Below the pieces are notes generated by a model. That model ran no database searches, was not told the DNA's origin, and saw nothing but the letters and a program-made list of their open reading frames with translations. A stretch of 63,363 bases of DNA, filler included, from Collodictyon triciliatum (taxonomy: Eukaryota), in assembly GCA_043381765.1 (NCBI GenBank). It is 15 parts of 15 records of this genome, joined end to end, with 100 filler letters (N's around TTAATTAATTAA, not from the genome) between each part and the next. Parts side by side here need not be neighbours in the genome. Positions count along the whole stretch, not along the records: positions 2,578 to 6,994 come from JBHJMP010006097.1; 14 more parts are not named here. One strand, given 5' to 3'. Positions 2,578 through 62,293 of the stretch are shown here, one piece after another. Position numbers and translations under genes: made by a program. Numbering within the stretch: the first letter of the stretch is position 1; each line of letters begins with the position of its first letter.

Positions 2578-5500
2578 ACGGAAATCTTCCAGACTTTAAT
2601 CTCCCTAGTATTACGTATTTGAATCTCTTTGTGAATCGAATTACTGGAACGATTCCAGACTTTCAAGGAATGCCGAATATTCAACATCTTGAGATTGACG
2701 GGAATGAATTGGAAGGAACAATACCAGATTTTTCTGGAATACAGTCGCTGAAAACATTATATATTGGCGATAGTGAAAAAATTACAGGTACAAAGTAATT
2801 TCCAATATTATTTAGTCTGAATTCTAATGATTTTTCATTTCAGGAACTCTGCCTGACTTCTCAGCGTTGCCAAATATTCAGATTCTTTGGATATATAGCT
2901 GCAAAGTTTATGGTTTGTTTTTAATTATTTTAAATATGATGGCATAGAAAAACTAACTTTTTATTACAGGAACCGTTCCAAACTTCAGTGGAATTCCAAA
3001 TGTTGAAATAATTTCTCTTGGCGACAACCATTTGACTGGTAATTTTAGTTATTATTTCATATATAATTGATACAAAACTAACTTTATATTACAGGAACCG
3101 TTCCAAACTTCAGTGGAATTCCAAATATTGAAATAATTTATCTTTTCAGCAATCAATTAACTGGTAAGTTTTAATTATTATTTCATGCATTATTGATGAA
3201 AAACTAACTTTATACAACAGGAACAGTTCCAAACTTCATTGGAATTCCAAATGTTGAAATAATTTATCTTTCCAGCAACCAGTTGACCGGTAAATTTTAA
3301 TTATTATTTTCATGTAATATAAATAAAAACTAACTTTATACATTACAGGAACAGTTCCAAACTTCAGTGGAATTCCAAATGTTGAAATTATTGATATTTC
3401 CAACAACCAATTGACTGGTAAATTTTATTTAAATTCCATGTGTTATTGATAAAAAACTAACTTTATATTACAGGAACCGTTCCAAACTTCAGTGGAATTC
3501 CAAATGTTTTAGGAATTTCTCTTTACAACAATCAGTTGACTGGTAATTTTTAATTATTAATTTCATGTAATATTAATAAAAACTAACTTTATGCTACAGG
3601 GACAGTTCCAAACTTCAGTGGGATTCCAAATGTTAAAATAATTTATCTTTACAACAATCTATTGACTGGTAAGTTTTAATTATTAATTTCATGTATTATT
3701 GGTACAAAACTAACTTAACATTACAGGAACAGTTCCAAACTTCAGTGGAATTCCGATAGTTTTAAGAATTTATCTTGATAGAAACCGATTGAATGGTAAT
3801 TTCTACACAATTTACCTTTCTATTTCTTTTGATTTTACATTTCCTTTAATATTAATGAGTAATTTTAGGCGCAATTCCAAACTTTTCAAATATTCATAAA
3901 CTGGAGATTTTTTCTGTTTATGATAATCAATTGGAGGGAAATGTTCCTGATTTCAAATATTGCCAAAACACCAAGGAAATAGTGTTGTTCCGAAATAAGT
4001 TGTCAGGCACACTACCGATGTTCAATCTAAATAATCTGACAAGACTGGATGTGAGCGAAAACCAAATTATTGGCTCTATCCCAGAAAACTGGTCATTGCC
4101 TTCAATTAAATACATCGACTTGTCTTGGAACAAAATGAACGGCACAGTCCCAACCTATTTTCAGGGACTTTCAGAACTGAAATCACTCGTTTTGTCTCAC
4201 AATAAATTTTCTGGAAGCATGCCTGATTTATTCTGGAATCTGCCGAATCTAGTCACCATTGATTTGAGAAACAACTCATTTTCAGGAGACGTTGGTATTT
4301 TTATCTCACCAGCTTCAGTGAATTACGATTACTTTTATGAAAACCTTTTGCTTGATGACAACCAATTGAATGGAGTATTGAATTGGTGGATATTTAACTA
4401 TGTTATTAACGTAAAAACATTAAGTATTAAGAATAACAACATCACTAAGCTTGATGAACTTACAAATCTATTGAGATGGACTTCCCTTGACCTCACTGGA
4501 AATCCGATTGTTGGAAATATCCCTGAATCATACATCGGGTTTTCAAAGCTTGAGCATCTGGGATTGAATAAAACATCGATGAATCACGGAACAGCCAGTT
4601 TCCTTCCTGTTTTCATGAATTTCACAACATCTTTCAATCTCCAAGATGAAACAAAACGCTACCTTTGTCCTTCCATTATTTCGAAATCTGGTCTGGTTGA
4701 GTTGGAGGTTGACTTGAATCCAGAATACTATGACTTCGAATTTTGTAAATGCTTGCCTGGTTATTTTGGCTTTGGAAACAATTGCGTTCAATGCCCAAGA
4801 GGATGTGATTGCCTCGATGGAACGTCCTTGAAATTCTGTCATGCTTCACCAAGCATCACCTCTGTGAAATCAATACTGCCATGTCCACGTCGAGAGTCAT
4901 GTGATGTGTCGATTCCAGAGAAAATTTCGAATTCAAATACGACGGTCGAAATCATAGACCTGTGTCAAGAAGGTTATGAAGGGTATGCCTGTTCAAAATG
5001 TCAGAATGGATACGGAAATCACGGAAGGTCATGTGTGAAATGCGATAAAGGAACGATTTATTTAACCCTGATTATTGGTTCGATTGGATTCTTTATGTTC
5101 ATTTGCTACCTGTATTTCACAGAGACATCGAAATCAGGTAAATGTCACTAAATTATTTCACGTGATTCTCATATTAATCAGAATATTTCATTCAGCGAAA
5201 CTCAGGATAATAATGTTCCACATGCAAACACTGTCGATTGTGTCTAGTGGAATCGTTCTTTCAGAAGATGCAAACAGCTTTATTGATGTTTCATCGTCGA
5301 TTGGTTCAATCCAATTTCCCAACCTTTCCTGTGTCCTTGGAGTAGACGATGTGTTTGCTTCTCTGATGTTCAGTTTTGCAAGAATACCAATCTTTATCGT
5401 CGTTGGCTCATCCACGTACTATTTTGGACATGGACACAAGCAGAACAAAGTAAGGATGGAAAAATATATTCAGTTGTGAATCTTTATATTAGTTTCAGTT

Positions 5501-6418
5501 TCATCTTTAGAAATACTAAATTAATTATTTTGGCAGGCTATTTTTATCGCATTGAATCTTCTGTTTTTTATATACTACTCGGTCGCAAGAGAGGTGTTTG
5601 GTGTTTTTGGATGCACTGTTTATGAAGAAGGTGTGAATAGATGGTATCTGAATTTTAAGCCCTGGATTCAATGCAGCCCAGCCTCGGATGAATATCAAAA
5701 ACTGCTTGCAATATCTGTTCCGGTTTTCTTTCTTTTCTTGGTCGGTCTGCCTGCTTTTGTATTGTGGAAAGTGAAAATCATGACAGAAAGATCTGGTTAC
5801 GAACCAGGAGCGCGATATGGATTCCTTTACTTGCCATACAAAGAGGTATGTGATTCAATATTCTTTTTTTGTATTATCATTGTGAATTATTTATGAGAAT
5901 AACATTATTTAGACCTTCAAGTATTGGGAGTTTGTCATAATCGCACGCCGCATCGCTTTTTCGTTTGCGCTCAGTGTCGTTCCATACACAAGCCCAGCGG
6001 TTTTTTTCGTCCTTCTCATCATCGTTATTCAGGTTGATTAAATATGTTTTTATATGGTTCAATATGTGAGATAATTAATTTTTGAAAATGAAATATTAAA
6101 TCAAGCACAAACTTTTAGGGCTCAATTTGGATGCAAAAAGAGTATAAGCCTTACCACTCGAAAATCGAAAATCAAATGGAAGTGTCCAGCCTCTACATTA
6201 TTTTTTTGTCCTTCTTCCTTTCGCTCATGTCGACTCTGTTCGACTCGCAATCGTGGATAACAGCTTTGCTTATTGGAATGAACTCAATATGGCTGCTTTA
6301 TTTTACGTCAACCGCTTTTGTGATTCCTTTATTCAAAAGCGGCGAAATCAAGCAAAAATTGGTCAAGATGAAAAATCTGAAGAATGGAAAACGATTATCT
6401 GACCCGTTGTTGGATTAA
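2578..6418 (+). CDS. 5'-partial LRR + Cys-rich/EGF-like + multipass (7TM-like) surface receptor
   Basis: Exons 2578-2787, 2844-2912, 2970-3038, 3095-3163, 3221-3289, 3349-3417, 3474-3542, 3600-3668, 3727-3795, 3869-5137, 5196-5449, 5537-5845, 5913-6032 and 6119-6418 splice in frame with GT-AG introns. It has plant-type LRRs (LxxLxLxxNxLxGxxP), CKCLPGYFG...CQEGYEGYACSKC, hydrophobic helices and the motif YGFLYLPYKETFKYWEFVIIARR typical of protist multipass receptors. Confidence 0.9.
2970..3795 (+). repeat. Tandem ~125-bp exon+intron units; seven 69-nt LRR exons
   Basis: Each unit is GAAC(C/A)GTTCCAAACTTCAGTGGAATTCC...ACTG followed by a homologous 56-59-nt intron GTAA..AACTAAC..ACAG. Confidence 0.95.
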
Positions 6419-6615
6419 TCGAATAAATGATTAAACAAACATTAAATTATTGACTATACTTTCTCTTTAGAAATTTACAACATTGGAATGTTATGATTAA
6501 CTTTATTTTTCAAGTTTTCAATTCATTATATTATTTTTGATTTTTTTATACTTTGATAATAATAGATATTCCAATCATGTCATTCATTCCAAGGCATGTT
6601 TTTTCCCTTTATTCG

Positions 6616-6994
6616 ATTAAAAGTGCAGCGAGGTTATGCCATACAAAGGGACAAGATAGGTGCTGATGATAAAGAGCAAACGCGAGTAGGGGAAGACACT
6701 ACCGTGGAGAGGCTAGCACTGGAAAGAAATCAGTGATAGCGAGTTGGTCAGATGGGCGACCTAACTGGTTGATTGGTTGCGTGGGTAGCAGGGGTTGGAT
6801 ATGCTGTGGGAGATTTTGTACGACACATTCCCACATCTCTCTTCGCTTGCGGTCAGAGTAGCGAAGAGTGCGAGCGTGTTTCAGCAGGCTGTACAGGAAG
6901 CTGTATTGCACGAGGCTTTCAAGCCTGGATACATTGATTTCTCGTTCGGGTGAATCATTGGAGCGAGAGAATGCACGCACACTCCATAAGAACC
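6616..6994 (-). mobile_element. Dispersed repeat, probable 3' end of a non-LTR retrotransposon (copy 1)
   Basis: Its reverse complement closely matches 29778-30053. It carries an ORF end (FLWSVRAF...ITDFFPVLASPR*), a short 3' UTR and AATAAA, and runs into a scaffold end. Confidence 0.55.
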
Positions 6995-7094
6995 NNNNNN
7001 NNNNNNNNNNNNNNNNNNNNNNNNNNNNNNNNNNNNNNTTAATTAATTAANNNNNNNNNNNNNNNNNNNNNNNNNNNNNNNNNNNNNNNNNNNN

Positions 7095-7351: not shown

Positions 7352-8193
7352 CATAATCCCGTGGCATAATCCCGTAGTGTCATAATCCCGTGGCATAACC
7401 TCGTGGCATAATCCCGTGTCATAATCCCATATCACAATCCCATGGTATAATCCCGTGGCATAATCCCGTATCATAATCCCGTGGCATAATCCCGTGGCTT
7501 AATCCCGTGTCATAATCCCGTAGTGACATAATTCCGTGGCATAATCCAGTGGCATAATCCCGTGGCATAATCCCGTGGCTTAATCCCGTGGTATAATCCC
7601 GTGTCATAATCCCGTGTCATAATCCCGTAGTGTCATAATTCCGTGGCATAATCCAGTGGCATAATCCAGTGGCATAATCCCGTGGCATAATCCCGTATCA
7701 TAATCCCGTGGCATAATCCCGTGTCATAATCCCGTGTCATAATCCCGTGACATAATCCCGTGACATAATCCCGTGTCATAATCCCGTGGCATAATCCCGT
7801 GTCATAATCCTGTGTCATAATCCCGTGTCATAATCCCGTGTCATAATCCCATGCCATAATCCCGTGTCATTATCCCGTAGCATAACCCCGTGCCATAATC
7901 CCGTGTATAATCCCGTGTATAATCCCGTGGCATAATCCCGTAGCATAATCCCGTGTCATAATCCCGTGTCATTATCCCGTAGCATAACCCCGTGCCATAA
8001 TCCCGTAGCATAACCCCGTGCCATAATCCCGTATCATAATCCCGTGTCATAATCCCATGCCATAACCCCGTAGTGACATAATCCCGTGGCATAACCTCGT
8101 GGCATAATCCCGTGTATAATCCCGTGTATAATCCCGTGGCATAATCCCGTAGCATAATCCAGTATCATAATCCCGTGGCATAATCCCGTGACA
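7352..8193. repeat. 13-bp minisatellite, consensus CATAATCCCGTG(G/T), roughly 60-65 units
   Basis: Read directly; the overlapping RDYDTGLCHGIM ORFs are artefacts of the repeat. Confidence 0.97.
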
Positions 8194-8670
8194 TATCTCA
8201 TCAGGAGCTGCTACATGGACACATTTATAAAAAAAACATCAGTACATCTTAAACTCCATTTCTTTTTTTTTTTTGATTTTTTCACCTTCCACTTTTCTAT
8301 TTCGTTATTTTCTATTTTCTCTTTTTGATTTCCCTTCCTTCACGCAACTCATTTTGCCCCTTGAGTTTTGCAAGAGCCCTTTTTCTCTCCCTCGCTTCTT
8401 TCCCCGTTTATCGTACTCCTCATTTAACGGCCTCCTTTTTCTACATATTTTTATTTATTTAATTTAATTTTGGGAATCAGCATCGTCGTCACTCATTATA
8501 CTTCAGACGATCAAAATACTCTTTCTTATGTTTTGATCAAATGAATGTTGAAGAAACAAAAGCAAATAAAAAAAAAAGGTGCTCTTGTTACCTTTAACTA
8601 ATCCTCTTTGACAAAATGAAATGTGTAAAAGGTAAATTATTATTATGGCTCAACCTATAAACCACCGAAA

Positions 8671-9047
8671 GACGACTTTTCTCACAACGCGCATTCTCTT
8701 TTTTTCGGGCGAAGATCGAAGATCGACTTTTTTCACAACCCGCATTCTCATTTTTTCGGGCGAAGATCGGAGATCGACTTTTCTTACAACCCGCATTCTC
8801 TTTTTTTCGGGCGAAGATCGAAGATCGACTTTTCACACAACCCGCATTCCCATTTTTTCGGGCGAAGATCGACTTTTCTCACAACGCGCATTCTCTTTTT
8901 TTTGGGCGAAGATCGACTTTTCTTCCAACCCGCATTCTTATTTTGTCGGGCGAAGATCGAAGATCGACTTTTCTCACAACCCGCATTCTCTTTTTTTCGG
9001 GCGGAGATCGACTTTTTTTACAACCCGCATTCTTATTTTTTTCGGGT
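8671..9047. repeat. 44-51-bp minisatellite, 8 units (GATCGACTTTTCTCACAACCCGCATTCTCTTTTTTTCGGGCGAAGATCGAA)
   Basis: The CGCATTC core recurs 8 times at a ~50-bp period. Confidence 0.95.
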
Positions 9048-9269: not shown

Positions 9270-11532
9270 AGTCCAAATTTATTGTATAGATTCTTTGATT
9301 ATCGAAAAGCTGAAAAAATGCTCAAGTGTTTCAAATTGTTGTAATGATAATGGAGAAAATAACAGATTCTCTTAATGAAAAAAATGGTTGTGTTATGGGA
9401 TACTCACCCGAAGTCCTTCGCGTCTGCACATGGACAGGTATATGCTGAGTCTCGTGTCCGCGACTTGACTTTGTTGCTCGATAAACAGGATATTGGCTTC
9501 GAATATTCCCCATAACTGGCACAGGATGCACTATTTTCACAAGAAATTCAATTTTTGTCCTTTATGCATGAATATACCATTCTATATGAATTATAACAAA
9601 AAACATCGACTAAGTGTGTGGTTGCGCAAAACAAAGTGCTGAAGTGAAAGGCAAAATAGAAAATATGATTGCAAGACTTACGCTTTTCGTATTCCGGCAT
9701 AGTGGAGAGCCATTGCAATTCTCAGTGTGTGTGAAGCAGACTTCGTCGTATTCGATAAGCAGGATATTGGACTTCGAATGTTCACCATAACCCATCACAT
9801 ATTGCACTATTTTCACAAGAAATTCAATTTTTGTGCTCTATGCATAAATAAACCTTCTATATGAATAATAATAAAAAGAACATCGGCTAATGTATAGAGG
9901 AAAAAAAACAAAGTGCTCGAAGTGAAAGATGGGAAATAAAATATCTGGTTGCACGAGACTTACAGTTTTCGTATTCGGCATAGTGCAGAGCCTTTGCGAA
10001 TTGAGTGTGAAGCAGACTTTGTTGCTGAATAATCAGGAATTGGGCTTCGAATGTTCACCATATCTGACACAGAGTGCACTATTTTTCACAAGGGAAATTC
10101 AATTTTTATGCTCTATGCATGAATAAACCTTCTATATGAATTATAAAAAAACATCTACTAAGTGTGTGGAGTAAAAAAACAAAGTGCTAAAGTAAAGGGC
10201 ATAATAAAATGTCTGGTTGCAGAAGACTTACGGCTTTCGTCACATTCCAGCATAGTGGAGAGCCTTTGCAGTCTTCGTGTGCGAAGCAGACTTTGTCGAC
10301 GTCCGGCATAGTGGAGATCCTTCGTGGGTCTTGTGTGGAGCAGACTGCGTCGTATTTCGGCATACTGGAGAGCCTTTGAGGGTTGTGTGTAAAGCAGACT
10401 TCGTTGTATTCGGGCATAGTGGAGAGCCTTCGAGGGTTGTGTGTAAAGCAGACTGCGTCGTAATCACGGCTTAGTAGAGAGCCTTTGAGGGTTGTGTGTA
10501 AAGCAGACTGCGTCGTAATCACGGCTTAGTAGAGAGCCTTTGAGGGTTGTGTGTGAAGCAGACTGCGTCGACGTTCAGCATAGTGGAGAGCCTTTGCAGT
10601 CTTCGTGTGCGAAGCAGACTTCGTCGACGTCCGGCATAGTGGAGAGCCTTCGAGGGTTGTGTGTCTTGTGAAGCAGACTTCGTCGTATCCCGGCATAGTG
10701 GAGAGCCTTCGAGGGTTGTGTGTCTTGTGAAGCAGACTTCGTCGACGTTCGGCATGGTGGAGAGCCTTTGCGGGTATTGTGTGTGTGAAGCAGATTTCGT
10801 CACATCCCGGCATAGTGCAGAGCCCCTGTGTGTCTTGTGTGTGTGGAGCAGACTGCGTCGTATCCCGGCATAGTGGAGAGCCTTCGAGGGTTGTGTGTCT
10901 TGTGTGTGTGGAGCAGACTGCGTCACATCCCAGCATAGTGGAGAGCCTTCGAGGGTTGTGTGTAAAGCAGACTGCGTCGTATTCCGGCATAGTGGAGATC
11001 CTTTGCGGGTCTTGTGTGAAGCAGACTGCGTCGACGTTCGGCATAGTGGAGAGCCTTTGCGGGTCTTGTGTGAAGCAGACTGCGTCGTATTCCGGCATAG
11101 TGGAGCCTTTGCAGTCTTCGTGTGCGAAGCAGACTTTGTCGACGTCCGGCATAGTGGAGAGCCTTCGAGGGTTGTGTGTGTGAAGCAGATTTCGTCACAT
11201 CCCGGCATAGTGGAGAGCCTCTGTGTGTCTTGTGTGTGTGAAGCAGACTGCGTCGTATCCCGGCGTAATGGAGAGCCTTCGAGGGTTGTGTGTCTTGTGT
11301 GTGAAGCAGATTTCGTTGTATTCCGACATAGTGGAGATCTTTTGTGGGTCTTGTGTGGAGAAGACTGCGTCATATTCCGGCATAGTGGAGAGCCTCTGCG
11401 ATTGTGTGTGAAGCAGACTTTGTCGACGTTCGGCATAGTGGACTGCCTTCCAAAGCATGTGTGTGGAGCAGACTGCGTCGTATTCGGGCATAGTGGAGAG
11501 CCTTCGGGGGTTGTGCGTGTGTGAAGCAGATT
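9270..11532 (+). repeat. Composite repeat element copy 1: conserved end, ~275-bp units x3, ~57-bp minisatellite array
   Basis: GCTGAAAAAATGCTCAAGTGTTT...GGGATACTCACC.GAAGT.CTTCGCGTCTGC and all internal units match the reverse complement of 25330-28140. Confidence 0.9.
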
Positions 11533-11772
11533 NNNNNNNNNNNNNNNNNNNNNNNNNNNNNNNNNNNNNNNNNNNNTTAATTAATTAANNNNNNNNNNNN
11601 NNNNNNNNNNNNNNNNNNNNNNNNNNNNNNNNTTCTTTTTTTCTCTTCTTTTTTTCTCTTCTTTTTTTCTCTTCTTTTTTTCTCTTCTTTTTTTCTCTTC
11701 TTTTTTTCTCTTCTTTTTTTCTCTTCTTTTTGTTTTCGTGCCCGGCGGCTCCTCACTTAATTATACAAAAAG

Positions 11773-13902
11773 GAAAACACCTCGTCTCCGTCGGGCTGTG
11801 TGGCGACCTGAACTATCTTGACCCCAGAAGCCCCGCTGGTCCAGTACGCGTCGTTCGTGGCCACAATAAAGCCATCACTGCCCTTACTTATGACCAGCAA
11901 CGCAAACGCATATACACCGGAAGCTACGATGGTGCTATTCAAAGCTGGTCTCTTGAAGGATTAGCTGTCAGTTAATCACATGCAACTATATCTCTTATTT
12001 TTATTATTTTTATTTTTATTTTTAAACTCCTAATCCTTCTGGCCATCCTCCGCACTTTTCGATATGCTCCTCTACTTGCTTGTATACAAGTCAAGTAATT
12101 ATATTTGGGTTTACTTATTTTTTTCCTCTTTTTTTCTTTTTTAATTTTTTTAAAGGATGCCCCTGGATTCACCGGCGCTGGACACACAAATGAGATCAAG
12201 AATATGCTGGTGCATGGCCAATCGCAGGTGATTAATGTGTTTATATATGTGAACACAAGCCGCAAGAATATTATCGCCTTCTTTTTTCTATGATATATGT
12301 CCTATGATGCTGAATATAATATGTAGGCTCTTATTTCGGTGGCTCTCGATGACACTATGAGGACAACAAACCTCAATACCAAGACATACTCTCAATCCAA
12401 CACTATCAAACTGACGAGGTGTGTCATCACAGTTTATATTGCTAATCATTTGAGTCTTCGTACAATGAATTATATTTTGATAATAATTGCGCCTCTGATC
12501 TGTGCAAACTCTTTTCTTCAAAAATACAACATGATAAGAAAAAAAAGAGAAAGGAAAGAAAGGACGAGGAACTACTCACATTAAATTAGACCAGTGAAAA
12601 GAATACTTAAAGTGTTTTTTTCATCGAATTCCCAGCGCTCCTACTGGTGTTTCGACTTGTGATGCTACGCCAGACATCACTGTAGTTTCTACGGTCAAGT
12701 CCATAGATGTATATCAAAGAGGTGCCCTTCTTTCTTCGACTCCATTAACCTACAAACCAACTGCTTTGGCGGTCGCGCCAAATGGTGTCAGTGTGAGCGT
12801 TGCTGGGGACGATAAAGTGGTTTGCAGCCAGATTTTTCTTCAGTTATATGTGAACAAGTTAATTCGTACTTAACTGAACTATATCATGAGTTAAATTCAA
12901 CAATGTATATGAGTCAGGTTGAGAGCTGTCACTCTTTTTTTCTCTCCTTTTTTTTTCCACATAGTATTCTCATAGCATATATTTTCATTGTTTTCATAGC
13001 AGCAGTACGGTTTCAAATACGACCACTTATGCTAATTCTCTGAGATATAACATCGCATCTCACTTTTGTGCTTTTAAATCGGAATATCTAGATACACATC
13101 TATCGCATCGGCGAAGGTGGACAGCTGCAGTTGTTGGGTGAGTTGAAGGAGCACCGAGGCATCATAACAGCTGTTGCTTACTCTTTTGATGGAAGGTAAA
13201 TCACCGTTAAATGACAATTAATACCTTTTTGGGGGAAATATACTCCAATAATCTCCAAAGAGCCTCAGTTATGCTCCAGATCAGAGAGCATCATGAAAAA
13301 TTCACATGAGTGTCTTTTTTGAATGCTAAAACTCTGGCTCGACTATTTCTCCTGTATTCAAAGTCTATAACATTCCTGTGCTTTAGGTTTCTCGCCACCG
13401 CCGATGACAACCGCGAAATCATCCTGTGGGATCGCAGGACAGCAACTCCTTTCAAGGTTTTTCACAAACACTTTTTCTTCTTTAGTTTTGCTTGCTATTT
13501 TCTTTTTCTTTTTTCGTATTTTTTATTTTGTTCTTTGAATCGAAAGGGAAAATAATTCTCTTTTGTACTCTTTCACTTCTCTATGGCGTTACTAGACAAC
13601 GACAGTTGTTTTTTCAATGGAACCATGTCAATCGAAGTGAATTGTTACAATCTATCTGTAGTCCGGACTCAGCTACCACACCGGCCGTATCAATACACTG
13701 AGCTGGTCTCTTGACTCCCGTTACCTTGCCAGTGGATCACTCGATCTTTCCATCATTTTGTGGGATGTTCACAACGACTTCCAAAGGTAATCAGCTCGCT
13801 CAACTCACGGTCTTGAAAAATAATCCAAAGTCAAAATGTTCTCGTGTGTGGCTGAGTACTTTCTTTCTCTCTTTTTTCTCTTTTTTTTCTCTTTTTTTTT
13901 TC

Positions 13903-13972
<70 letters not shown>

Positions 13973-14558
13973 CTCTTTTTTTTTCTCTTTTTTTTTCTCT
14001 TTTTTTTTCTCTTTTTTTTCTCTTTTGTTTTTAGTTATATCTCCTAGAGCTTCACATCCTTTTTTTTTTTTTCGAAACGCAGCCCTAATATATTTACTGC
14101 ACAGTTTAAAGAACAATTTAAGAAATTGAAGTGTTAGGTGAAGTAGTTGGCTCTATGATTGATAAATAAAATGGATTTAACTATTCCCTTATCACAGAAC
14201 TGTCGCATCTCGTGCCCACCAAACAGGCGTCAACAAGGTGGAATGAATTTTCTTTTTCTTTTTTTCTTTTTCTTTTGTTCTTTTTGTTCTTTTTGTTCTT
14301 TTTGTTCTTTTTGTTCTTTTTGTTCTTTTTGTTCTTTTCTTTTTCTTTTGTTCTTTTTGTTCTTTCTGTTCTTTCTGTTCTTTTCTCTAATATTCAAGTT
14401 TTCACTTGCCTGTAATGAATCCACCCAAGGAACTTTGAGCGAAGGACAGATTATTTAACATGGCTTATTCTCGCCGCTTGCAGCTTCTCTTCCTGGATGG
14501 CAGCATCCTTGTTTCTGCAGGTCAGGACGGAATGGCGAAGATTTGGGTGGTTTCATAA
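11773..14558 (+). CDS. WDR1: WD repeat-containing protein 1 / actin-interacting protein 1 (C-terminal part, multi-exon)
   Basis: Exons encode HLVSVGLCGDLNYLD...VRVVRGHNKAITAL...IYTGSYDG, GAGHTNEI, ISVALDDTMR, EHRGIITAVAYSFDGRFLATADDNREIILWD, YHTGRINTLSWSLDSRYLASGSLD and LVSAGQDGMAKIW; stop at 14556-14558. Confidence 0.9.
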
Positions 14559-16009
14559 CGCGTGGATGGGTTCTCCTCTTGTCTTTTTTTCTCTTTCTCT
14601 GTCTTTGCTTTCAATTCTCACCATTTTACTCTGCCCTTGGAGGGAGGCAATGGCCCGATGATTGTGTGCGGTTCTAGAGTCTGTGAGTACGCAGAGATTG
14701 AAAGCTATGATTGCAGGATAGATTGGATAGGCACGAGTGAATTCAGGAGTTTAGAAAAAATTTCTACTCCCACAACATAAAGGTGAAGTGAAAGATGAAG
14801 TCCAGGGCGCTCCAAGAGTTTCATTCAGATATTTTCTGATATGAAGTATATAGTTGATTATCAATAATTTACTCTTCTCCACAACATTTCTCTGCCGTAG
14901 TGATATTATTCGGTTTTATGGGAGGTTAATTCAAGGGGAGAAAAATATTATGACATTAAAGAGATGAAAGCGACACAGAAATCAATAATGATGTCAACAT
15001 AAAAGTGAAAATATATGGAAACAAAAAAAAACCAACAACTTGATTATGTGAAGGGGCTACAGAGTGAATAATATTTCAAGCATTCGGATGCGCACCGAAC
15101 ATTGAAACAAGTGGTGATGAAACAATAGTGATAACCAAAAATTAAGAAGAAAAAAATGTATATATAAATTCAGAATTGTTTGCGGTGTCGCTTGCGAATG
15201 TGGAGACCCGCCGATTGGCTGAAAGGAGGACTCTCACGTGTCCTTGCTTGGCTTCGTGGGCCTTGAAAACTTTTTACTGATTTCTGTGTTTTGGATGAAA
15301 CCAGCGTGTCAGAGAGGCTTCGAAGGGTACGGAGAAATGGATATGATTCATCGCAAAGTATCAAATGTCGTATATGTATATGTATGTGGATGTGGATGTG
15401 GATGTGGATGTATTCATGATTTTTGGCATGGCTCCAATGAATGGTTATCTGCTATACTTGTCACTGCCTGGTAATACTGTGTCTCTTCGTCCTCCGGAGG
15501 CTCATCAACCAGAGCCATCAAATTGGAACGAGGCATTGACTCCATTTGCCGAAGGATTTGCCTTCGGTCTTCCGGCTCTGGGGAATTCTGTACTCCAACG
15601 GAGAGAAATGAAGACAAAGAAAAATAAAAAGAAACAAAATATCAATTAGCCAACTATATGGGTATCGTAGGGCGTCAGTGGCTCATGGGGTACTGATGAA
15701 ATGATATATATCACGCAAGACCTCGATTAGGTCTGCATAGCTGACGATGAGAGGAACCACAAATCCTTCATATCTGGTGTCTGGGACAGGCGTTTTTGAT
15801 TGCTGTAGTAGAAATAAAGAAGTAAGATAATGTCTGTCGCTTGCTTCCCTTTTCTTTTTTTATGTTTTTTTTTATGTTTTTATGTTTTTGCTTTTTTTAC
15901 AAAGTTCATGTTTTTTTATGTTTTTTTATGTTTTTTTATGTTTTTTTATGTTTTTTTATGTTTTTTTATGTTTTTTTATGTTTTTTTATTTTTTTTTATG
16001 TTTTTTTAT

Positions 16010-60034: not shown

Positions 60035-62293
60035 TTAGACTTTCGTGTATGAGATGCTGGTTTCCAGTTTCTTGGACTCTGCCACCTTTCGCACCGCCTT
60101 CATAAAGTCTTCCTGGACTACATAGTCTCGCTCACCTCGTATCGCAAACATTCCGGCTTCGGTGCATACGTTTCGAAGGTCCGCACAGTTGAAGCCGTCG
60201 GCTAGTTTGATCACGGCTTCATAGTCTGGTGTATTGTATGATGAGTTGGAATAATGGTGCGAGCATCAAGTAAGCAGTGATCATTTTGTAGAAGAGACAC
60301 ACAGGCCCAGAAAAAAAAAAGGTATGCATGGTTGCTGGTACCATGCTGTATACTTGCAGAATGTCACTTGAAATAAATGCCTAAGAACAAACCGATCTCT
60401 CCCATCTTGGTGATTGGTGCTGCATGAATCTTGAGAACTTCGATGCGTCCTTGTTCGTTGGGTAAAGGAATTTCAATCTTCCTATCAAGGCGCCCGGGCC
60501 TGAGGAGAGCAGGGTCCAAGACGTCCTGTAAGTTTTTTTTTTGTTTCTTAATTTTTTGTTTTTTCTGACCGTTTAGACAGTATTTTCGGGCAACAGAGAA
60601 GCAAACGTGAGGACATAAATAAATGTTTATAAATTGAAAAGGATACTTGCATATTGAATGAAGAGAGACATAGCCATCGCACAATCATAGAAAGGCTTTG
60701 AAAATTACTCACCGGCCGGTTTGTAGCCATGATGATTTTCACTCGACCAAGTTGATCGAACCCATCCATTTGGTTGAGAAGCTATACACGGTTTATTAAG
60801 ATGAGATAAATGCTTGAAAGAGACAGACCGAACTCCCGTAGAGTCTAGGATGGTTAGCTTTGATTCAATCTCAATTCATGAACCTCCATGAGTGTTCGCT
60901 GAATCTCACGGTCGGCTGATGTTCCCTCCGAAAATCTGCGGCCTCCGATGGCATCAATTTCGTCCATGAATATGATACAAGGCTGGTTGTCACGTGCATA
61001 GCCTATGGATTCGTATTGGCAACCATTTTGACTGCACTTAATATTGAATCACTTGGCCAAGTGGTTGGATAATAAGGTAATGATGGTCATTTTCATCCGG
61101 TCTTATTGCGAGGCATTACGGAAGGCATACTATGAATTTGAGAGAAGTATACCAAACATTTCGCGAATTACTCGTGCAGACTCTCCAATGTACTTGTCCA
61201 CGATTGCAGACGACACGACTTTTAAAAAAGATGCTTCAATATTACAGGCTATGGCTCGGGCAAGAAGGGTCTTTCCGGTTCCTGGAGGTCCGTAAAGCAA
61301 AACGCCCTGGCGTATATTAATAGTGAGGTAAAAATCAGCGCAAATATGAGCATAACGTATAGGATGATTCCTATTATGAAGAGGAGACTCCGTGCAAGTA
61401 CAATACAATAAAAATTAAAGGAATTAAAACATCATTATAATACACCATAAGAAAAGATAAACAAGATTCCTCGTATACCTTTGGTGCCTTAATTCCAACA
61501 CGCGTGAATAGATCGGGATTTGTCAGCGGCAGCTCAACCACCTCTCGAAGCTCTCTGATTTGGTCACCCAAGCCACCAACACTCGAGTAGCTGACCTTGC
61601 CAGGATCTTCGGACTTCATGTTGTGAACAATTGGATCGACCTCGCGGGGTAAGATGCGCATGATCGTCAGCGTTGTCATGTCAAGAGTGACGCGCGTTCC
61701 AGAGGTAAGTTTAGCTTTGTTCACTTTATCCCGACATCCGACCACGTACCGCGGCCCGCTGGAAGCCTTGACGATGACTGAATTTATATCATAAACGGTG
61801 AAAAAACAGTCTACCTCTCTTTTTTTTCTTTTTTTTCTTTTCAGCTGCTAATAGTAGGCATAACATGAGACACCAAGCCTAAATATCTACGTACACTTTT
61901 CGTCGTCTAGTTGCCGCAAAACTTCGCCGATCATTTGGCCGACACTTTGCAGTGCTTTAAGATCGTCCTCTGATTTGTCGTAGTCCTTCTTGACCTTCTT
62001 CAAAGCCTCACGAGCTAAAAAATAAAAGAAAAGGTTTTATGTGTAAAAAAGAAGTTGAGATTATAAACAAGTAGGCTTCATAAACCAACTCTGATATTCA
62101 TTTCTCTGTATGTGTGAGCGAGCTTGATTTCAGCGTCACGAACAGAGCTAACCCGATCAAAAATAGAAAAGAAAAATGTAGATGTTGATCCAAGTCAATA
62201 AGTTATACTTCTCTTCAGCTTGGCTTCCATTTCTCGGTGGTCTTTCAGCTTCTGTCCGTACTTCCGGATAACCTCCGACCGCTCGTCTGCCAT
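60035..62293 (-). CDS. PSMC6: 26S proteasome AAA-ATPase subunit RPT4 (regulatory subunit 10B)
   Basis: [56 protein letters not shown], Walker [54 protein letters not shown] and [18 protein letters not shown]; complete multi-exon gene. Confidence 0.97.

Follow-up and report, generated by a model that had tools for sequence, protein, structure and literature searches.

A tandem array of single-repeat LRR exons with a diversified predicted binding face in a putative multipass protein gene of Collodictyon triciliatum

Arrays in which each exon encodes one leucine-rich repeat (LRR) are already known from brown algae, where the face of the repeats is under selection, and from Tetrahymena, where the exon arrays are clonal. 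The brown-algal exons belong to ROCO and LRR-kinase genes (Zambounis et al. 2012, PMC3341825; Teng et al. 2024, PMC11378527); the available text of both papers also describes non-coding and inverted exons within introns, along with splice variants. The Tetrahymena expansion is attributed, in the accessible portion of its report, to unequal crossing-over (PMC6564038). In plant R genes, the x residues of LRRs are exposed to solvent and under selection, according to the available text of PMC3113787.

An array of this kind is present in Collodictyon triciliatum, a member of CRuMs, a group usually placed beside the lineage that comprises animals, fungi, and amoebae (PMC10492846, in its available part). 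The window, which is the whole stretch of 63,363 nucleotides that was analysed (assembly GCA_043381765.1), consists of contigs of ~4.4 kb strung together by N-padded linkers. The gene lies on the plus strand of the contig at 2578-6994, and its 5′ part is cut off by the contig start at 2578. From that cut end onward, the reading frame is complete: once spliced, it stays open over 14 exons (eight of 69 nt, one upstream, and five downstream) and encodes 1003 residues (Table 1). Splicing was deduced from the genomic sequence and from homology to proteins known from a relative's mRNA. Colinearity of the gene with one of these, P0001, lends support to the splice sites predicted for the membrane-domain exons.

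Table 1. Features of the visible gene (positions count along the window)
Feature	Position	Strand	Remark
Upstream exon, three LRRs	2580..2787	+	Pfam LRR_4 E=1.2e-10
Exon of 69 nt and phase 1-1, encoding one LRR that is older, divergent, and outside the burst	2844..2912	+	
Cassette C1: intron 2913-2969, 69-nt exon 2970-3038	2913..3038	+	Intron distance (p) to the other cassette introns ~0.32
Cassette C2: intron 3039-3094, exon 3095-3163	3039..3163	+	
Cassette C3: intron 3164-3220, exon 3221-3289	3164..3289	+	
Cassette C4: intron 3290-3348, exon 3349-3417	3290..3417	+	
Cassette C5: intron 3418-3473, exon 3474-3542	3418..3542	+	
Cassette C6: intron 3543-3599, exon 3600-3668	3543..3668	+	
Cassette C7: intron 3669-3726, exon 3727-3795	3669..3795	+	
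Large exon: the rest of the LRRs (intronless), the Cys-rich stalk, and the first predicted membrane helix	3869..5137	+	
Predicted membrane-domain exon	5196..5449	+	Colinear with mRNA-derived P0001
Predicted membrane-domain exon	5537..5845	+	Colinear with P0001
Predicted membrane-domain exon	5913..6032	+	Colinear with P0001
Last coding exon: final predicted helices, tail of ~30 aa, stop codon	6119..6412	+	

Positions 2844-3795 hold eight consecutive 69-nt exons, each of phase 1-1 and each encoding one LRR, just as the preliminary description had them. All eight are bounded by AG and GT, with a Gly codon split after its first base, and each of the seven introns within the array (56-59 nt) would bring in an in-frame stop if retained. 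Seven of the exons form a tandem repeat with their introns: TRF reports period 126, 6.8 copies, and 83% matches over 2948-3799, and the cassette pattern matches seven times within the window and never in 100 shuffles. The introns had been called homologous, and the duplicated unit is indeed intron plus exon. Identity among the seven cassettes is 77-90% for exons and 83-91% for the introns of C2-C7 (9-17% of sites differ); the C1 intron is more diverged. The flanking introns, 2788-2843 and 3796-3868, lie outside the repeat. All seven cassette introns share an invariant 11-nt block that includes CTAAC (column shuffle, p=0.011), and CTAAC occurs in none of the six other introns of the gene; presumably, this block contains the branch point. 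Transposons were not seen in the cassette introns, Rfam gave no match at 6400-7000, and folding the RNA of the array, which was done without a shuffle control for such a length, gave nothing interpretable.

At the protein level, the repeats combine a fixed part with a variable part. The scaffold GTVPNFSGIPN, previously given as common to seven copies, is exact in five of them; copy 3 carries S>I, and copy 7 carries N>I. An N-x-S sequon for N-glycosylation lies in the scaffold of six of the seven copies. The seven differing β-strand segments (VEIISLGDNH through VLRIYLDRNR) had all been read correctly.

Six x positions were set beforehand from the LxxLxLxxNxL consensus: codons 13, 14, 16, 18, 19, and 21. 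Their predicted placement on the concave face follows from the same consensus. These six sites carry 16 amino-acid changes, and the remaining 17 codons together carry 5. In pairwise comparisons, dN is 0.61 for the x codons and 0.04 for the rest; overall dS (0.27) and intron distance (0.22 JC) are mutually consistent. A codon model, in which multi-nucleotide (doublet) changes are left outside, gives omega_x of 2.09-3.38 and omega_other of 0.12-0.17, with p between 0.0001 and 0.051 (below 0.05 in 15 of 16 settings). Ratio tests against neutral simulations, with and without free recombination, give P of 0.0005-0.037 in 12/12 settings; the simulated genealogies were star, coalescent, per-codon, and block. 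Both the model and the simulations omit the splice ends, the invariant block, and the first 37 alignment columns, at the 5′ side, of the C1 intron. All of these tests concern seven short sequences from a single locus chosen for its variable look. The residues of the predicted binding face have changed faster than neutral DNA, and the scaffold and other non-x codons are under strong purifying selection. Synonymous change is alike in the scaffold and strand halves of the unit (pS 0.19, 0.26, 0.25), so the scaffold has not simply been homogenised. The dN/dS comparison across cassettes that the preliminary description had proposed thus does find a non-synonymous excess at the concave-face positions.

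Could relaxed constraint produce the same pattern? Under this explanation, the exposed positions drifted neutrally after a chance expansion, and conversion or doublet mutations inflated dN/dS. Homoplasy is high: incompatible informative site pairs make up 69 of 120, so the copies have no clean tree, and the tree that is obtained is near star-like, with low support and poor resolution. Several x codons differ at two or three bases, the sample is small, and the weakest codon-model setting reaches only p=0.051. Nevertheless, the 16 changes at the six sites exceed the 6-11 expected at omega=1, a range that includes per-codon and block recombination; a spatial conversion-tract signal is absent (PHI-like test, p 0.81-0.95); and synonymous and intron divergence agree. 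Relaxed constraint alone is therefore judged unlikely.

The burst is young and specific to this gene or lineage: of 40 relatives examined, only two contain repeats that match each other at 65% identity or more, with a single such pair apiece. In 4/4 metagenome runs from two studies, the gene is covered throughout, including the array and its introns, by contig pieces of 80-99% likeness; these pieces are short, were mapped at 80% likeness, and none spans the gene. This coverage of gene and cassettes indicates that relatives with the same layout exist in nature. A search of JGI metagenome contigs for the 69-nt exon pattern yielded 17 loci with 23 matches, 22 of them within continuous open frames; none of the 17 loci matched the C-terminal half of the receptor, and a wild allele of the array was therefore not recovered from them.

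The metagenome pieces also bear on two further doubts, misassembly of the array and a pseudogene at this locus. An artefact would suit the make-up of the window, a chain of ~4.4-kb contigs, and the absence of the gene start. However, all copies differ from one another, the frame is open across all 14 exons, non-x codons are strongly purified, and the gene is covered end to end by the metagenome pieces. An artefact or a dead gene is accordingly very improbable.

Still harder to credit is programmed or somatic rearrangement of cassettes, resembling that of lamprey VLRs, as hypothesised for Ectocarpus. The homologous introns would permit in-register recombination, and 8/9 listed metagenome joints involve the array, most of them roughly in register and in another order. 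Mapping at 80% likeness among copies 77-90% alike means that such joints cannot show cassette order. Moreover, donor, inverted, or broken cassettes are absent from the window: the pattern matches only the seven full cassettes, all on the plus strand, and the introns in the window hold no non-coding, inverted, or inactivated LRR exons of the Ectocarpus type. Even for brown algae, the available text of PMC11378527 reports no somatic ROCO recombinants.

By homology, the gene is a member of an expanded family in Diphylleia and Rigifila (CRuMs). Word-index protein searches found only one and four proteins, and a full HMMER search was needed; a query comprising the last LRRs, the stalk, and the first helix gave 357 matches. 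Origins were looked up for 21: 16 are from Diphylleia rotans, two are from Rigifila ramosa, and three are unnamed. Alignment with P0001 shows 357 identities over 992 columns, with LRR, Cys-rich, and membrane domains colinear. Most full-length members are 33-44% identical over the Cys-rich and membrane part, and the best reach 43-44% over about 470 aa. The cysteines are conserved across the family, and full-length members have N-termini that resemble signal peptides (judged by eye). As a side observation on relatedness, an exon for a proteasome ATPase, found on a different contig of the window, shares 93% identity with D. rotans and no more than 85% with the other listed matches, which suggests a collodictyonid relative distinct from D. 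rotans. Literature on LRR receptors of Diphylleia, Collodictyon, or CRuMs was not found, in coverage lying mostly outside subscription journals; the available text of PMC12716839 and PMC13091385 does not treat the LRR / Cys-rich / multi-TM family.

The visible protein comprises about 20 plant-type LRRs (22-24 aa), a Cys-rich stalk, nine hydrophobic segments, and a tail of ~30 aa. The stalk has 15 Cys in residues 516-650 and a weak DUF7630 match (E=3e-4) that falls under the cut-off. Two familiar classes were considered and rejected. The protein is not a ROCO protein: ROC-COR, a GTPase domain, is absent after the LRRs, which run instead into the stalk and the membrane helices. Nor is it an LRR receptor kinase: there are nine hydrophobic segments instead of a single helix, and no kinase match. 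Neither a kinase nor a GTPase tail is present in the visible protein, whose stop lies ~30 aa past the last helix.

Structural models were taken from two Diphylleia relatives, P0164 and P0167, standing in for the spliced protein of the window (AlphaFold, pLDDT 91 and 87). Both show LRRs, stalk, and nine long membrane helices, one with an additional short helix. A GPCR of the LRR-containing or adhesion type would be expected to have a seven-helix fold, and the fold searches gave no family assignment. The LRR part of a relative's model matches PGIP, FLS2, and BRI1 (Foldseek; PDB 1ogq, 4mn8), whereas its membrane domain has no Foldseek match at E<=0.001. The best VIA-align match of that domain, Hrd1 (Z 7.0, rmsd 5.6), scores as helical bundles generally would and was not taken as an assignment. 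The Pfam family TRP PF06011, of the fungal FLC/Pkd2 type, scores 19.1 and 22.2 bits in two of nine family proteins, against a curated cut-off of 28.5 bits. In the atlas, the membrane part has neighbours at 0.95-0.96: clusters from ciliates, haptophytes, and oomycetes, all uncharacterised, and in addition one cluster (0.95) in which 25% of the members carry PF06011. P0003 and P0004 combine the same membrane module with an FG-GAP or PMP ectodomain. The nine hydrophobic segments, the colinear relatives, and the helices in a relative's model support the proposal, made at the outset, of a multipass protist surface protein, as predicted from sequence.

The preliminary description went further and proposed a combinatorial repertoire, with cassettes skipped, duplicated, or swapped. 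Skipping or mutually exclusive use, in the manner of Dscam or of the brown-algal ROCO genes, would let one gene yield many binding faces. Its premise holds, as all eight exons are multiples of three nucleotides and phase 1-1, and the cassettes, being products of intron-plus-exon duplication, are frame-neutral. With near-identical introns, every donor is compatible with every acceptor. There is precedent as well: splice variants of ROCO genes have been described for Ectocarpus (PMC11378527, available text), and the accessible part of PMC6142364 names some species that show skipping with short introns. The same source associates exon skipping across eukaryotes with short exons between longer introns and with weak sites, whereas the cassette introns, at 56-59 nt, are as short as the ordinary introns of the gene.

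Transcripts were compared in the relative Diphylleia. The comparison covered 35 pairs in 14 clusters, 28 of the pairs covering LRRs; the metagenome pair P0007/P0155 and single-member clusters were left out. A difference of a whole repeat (22-24 residues) occurs in 0/28 pairs, and the only gaps in the LRR region are of 12 residues and one residue. Three pairs assigned to the same Trinity gene (P0001/P0005, P0009/P0161, and P0176/P0177) do differ by 3-4 residues in one LRR only, which would suit alternative exons. Transcript assemblies, however, yield local substitution differences from unphased allele bubbles, and the single-LRR differences are explained equally well in this way. Among the Diphylleia transcript variants as a whole, the x sites take 15 of 33 LRR substitutions against 26% expected (p=0.014), with the changes clustered, non-independent, and drawn from 4/14 clusters.

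Arrays that lack introns show the same division into scaffold and face. A four-repeat intronless LRR array elsewhere in the window (28867-29142) has pN of 0.45 at x and 0.04 elsewhere, with pS of 0.15. Intronless arrays of 23-aa LRRs in metagenome contigs and bacterial genomes have pN of 0.38-0.54 at x, above pS in six of nine loci (10 of 31 loci were examined, and L019, with two units, was left out). Several of these bacterial genomes are titled Beggiatoaceae (sulfur bacteria). The exon layout is thus not needed to explain a fixed scaffold with a variable face. Together with the window's lack of stray cassettes, these results leave combinatorial splicing doubtful.

Were skipping demonstrated, a unicellular eukaryote would have a receptor repertoire generated by splicing. 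Little credence is given to the larger version of the idea, in which Dscam-like alternative LRR exons in a unicellular CRuMs predator vary the receptor panel per cell or clone; were it true, the single-LRR transcript variants of Diphylleia would be the first trace of such a system.

The array is probably the product of inherited tandem duplication and diversifying selection on a CRuMs cell-surface recognition protein, much like the brown-algal ROCO and the Tetrahymena LRR genes. One intron-plus-exon unit of ~126 bp would have been duplicated in register, recently lengthening the LRR solenoid, with copies presumably arising in the lineage by unequal crossing-over or slippage. All cassettes would be spliced in constitutively, a reading favoured by the short introns and the invariant CTAAC block, and each would add one rung to the concave β-sheet. 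Purifying selection would hold the scaffold, while selection for new binding specificity would push the six outward-pointing residues apart. Diversity would therefore be inherited, residing in paralogues, alleles, and repeat number, and would not be generated in individual cells. The likely ligand would be a foreign surface that keeps changing, that of prey or of a parasite such as a virus. The nine-helix membrane domain might then pass binding on as ion flux, or as capture or adhesion, with no enzyme tail. This relay is the least certain step; the domain resembles TRP (FLC/Pkd2) weakly.

Diversifying selection on the predicted binding face suggests that a free-living protist is engaged in an arms race with its prey or parasites. 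The locus also offers a small, defined object for asking what is bound, and what role is played by the widespread protist module that combines DUF7630 with multiple TM segments.

How does the locus compare with its closest counterparts? It shares with the brown-algal type I LRR exons a symmetric one-LRR exon, tandem exon duplication, and a selected LRR face, and like the ROCO and LRR-kinase genes it is a candidate non-self receptor, as those genes are regarded in the available text of their reports. There, however, the exons are of 72 nt, are described as phase 2, and reside in ROC-COR GTPases or kinases; here, the exons are of 69 nt and phase 1, the introns are of 56-59 nt, and the predicted nine-helix carrier has no enzyme tail. 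The origin is probably independent of the brown-algal arrays. Tetrahymena LRR genes likewise underwent recent clonal intron-plus-exon expansion in a unicellular protist (Xiong et al. 2019, PMC6564038), but, in the accessible portion of that report, with 90-bp phase-2 exons, thousands of genes, retrotransposon association, and mostly purifying selection.

Plant LRR ectodomains (PGIP, R genes) share the G-x-x-P turn, and positive selection in them is confined to x residues (PMC3113787, available text). Plant receptors differ in having 24-residue repeats, compared with mostly 22-23 here, and a single-pass helix with a kinase; in the present gene, unlike plant receptors, the variation lies among repeats within one gene. 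Widespread protist proteins with DUF7630 and multiple TM segments, and the PF06011 family, may have a comparable membrane module, though the Pfam cut-off is not reached here. The D. rotans and R. ramosa proteins (EukProt; P0001, P0009-P0017, P0043, P0044) have the same domain order but are uncharacterised and lack the seven-copy burst. New features are the lineage in which the array occurs, a repeat unit of 69 nt and phase 1, and the carrier, a protein of a previously undescribed LRR / Cys-rich / nine-helix family.

Seven tandem cassettes, each an intron plus a 69-nt exon encoding one LRR, make up part of the receptor gene. Their introns share an 11-nt block containing CTAAC, which is invariant in all seven (2913-3726) and lies roughly 13-15 nt upstream of the acceptor. 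The motif is absent from the other six introns of the gene (0/6); on the + strand, CTAAC occurs 24 times in the whole window, seven of them at 2913-3726.

Members of the related LRR/Cys-rich/multi-TM protein family in Diphylleia include three transcript pairs (P0001/P0005, P0009/P0161, and P0176/P0177), each pair from one assembled gene. The sole difference within each pair is 3-4 residues in one LRR, mostly at x sites, the variable positions predicted to form the binding face. These differences represent either allele bubbles or alternative exons. A family subgroup (P0034, P0036, P0037, P0039, and P0029) carries an insertion of about 80-120 aa inside the membrane domain; this insertion diverges between the otherwise near-identical transcripts P0036 and P0305.

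The window consists of contigs of about 4.4 kb separated by 100-bp N-padded linkers. Because these joins are artificial, genes adjacent across the window are not true neighbors. The remaining features are listed below.

Genes and repeats in the window other than the receptor gene
Feature	Position	Strand	Remarks
WD40-like gene fragment, intron-rich	11720-14560	+	by-eye reading
Short intronless LRR gene	28699-29235	+	4.2 tandem 69-bp units
604-aa open frame	35560-37374	-	low-complexity start, many LRRs
Contig-long open frame, 1477 aa	38298-42728	+	built from 15 Cys-rich repeats of 279 bp each
26S proteasome ATPase exon	61479-61775	-	93% identity to Diphylleia rotans
Dispersed repeat	6609-6892		downstream of the receptor gene
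Inverted copy of dispersed repeat	29778-30060		start of another contig; 86% identity to 6609-6892
Satellite array, 13-bp unit	7352-8195
Satellite array, 44/51-bp unit	8669-9046
Satellite array, 54-bp unit	10244-11530 and 25330-27162		opposite orientations on two contigs

The contig-long frame includes 36 stretches matching Pfam Ephrin_rec_like and probably belongs to a giant surface protein. The LRRs of the 604-aa frame are of a different, intracellular-looking type. The proteasome exon served as lineage marker, and the WD40-like fragment is one that we take to resemble actin-interacting protein 1.

Rfam gave no match to the dispersed repeat at 6609-6892; summed contig depth at 6574-6994, across four metagenome runs, far exceeds that of the receptor gene. 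Each 54-bp satellite array adjoins a repeat of about 276-280 bp.

The short intronless LRR gene combines a near-invariant scaffold with variation at all six x sites: pN is 0.45 at x sites and 0.04 at other sites, with pS at 0.15. Intronless arrays of the same 23-aa LRR class were observed at loci L014 (38 LRR units counted), L018, L022, L025, L028, and L031, along with further loci. A literature search (Beggiatoa + LRR) found by title no paper on these arrays. The intronless 23-aa arrays of these loci lie in genomes titled Thioploca, Parabeggiatoa, Halobeggiatoa, Saprospiraceae, and Caldilinea, and the encoded proteins have signal-peptide-like amino termini and a cysteine N-cap. Throughout these arrays the x sites are hypervariable and the scaffold is almost constant, with pN exceeding pS in six of nine loci.
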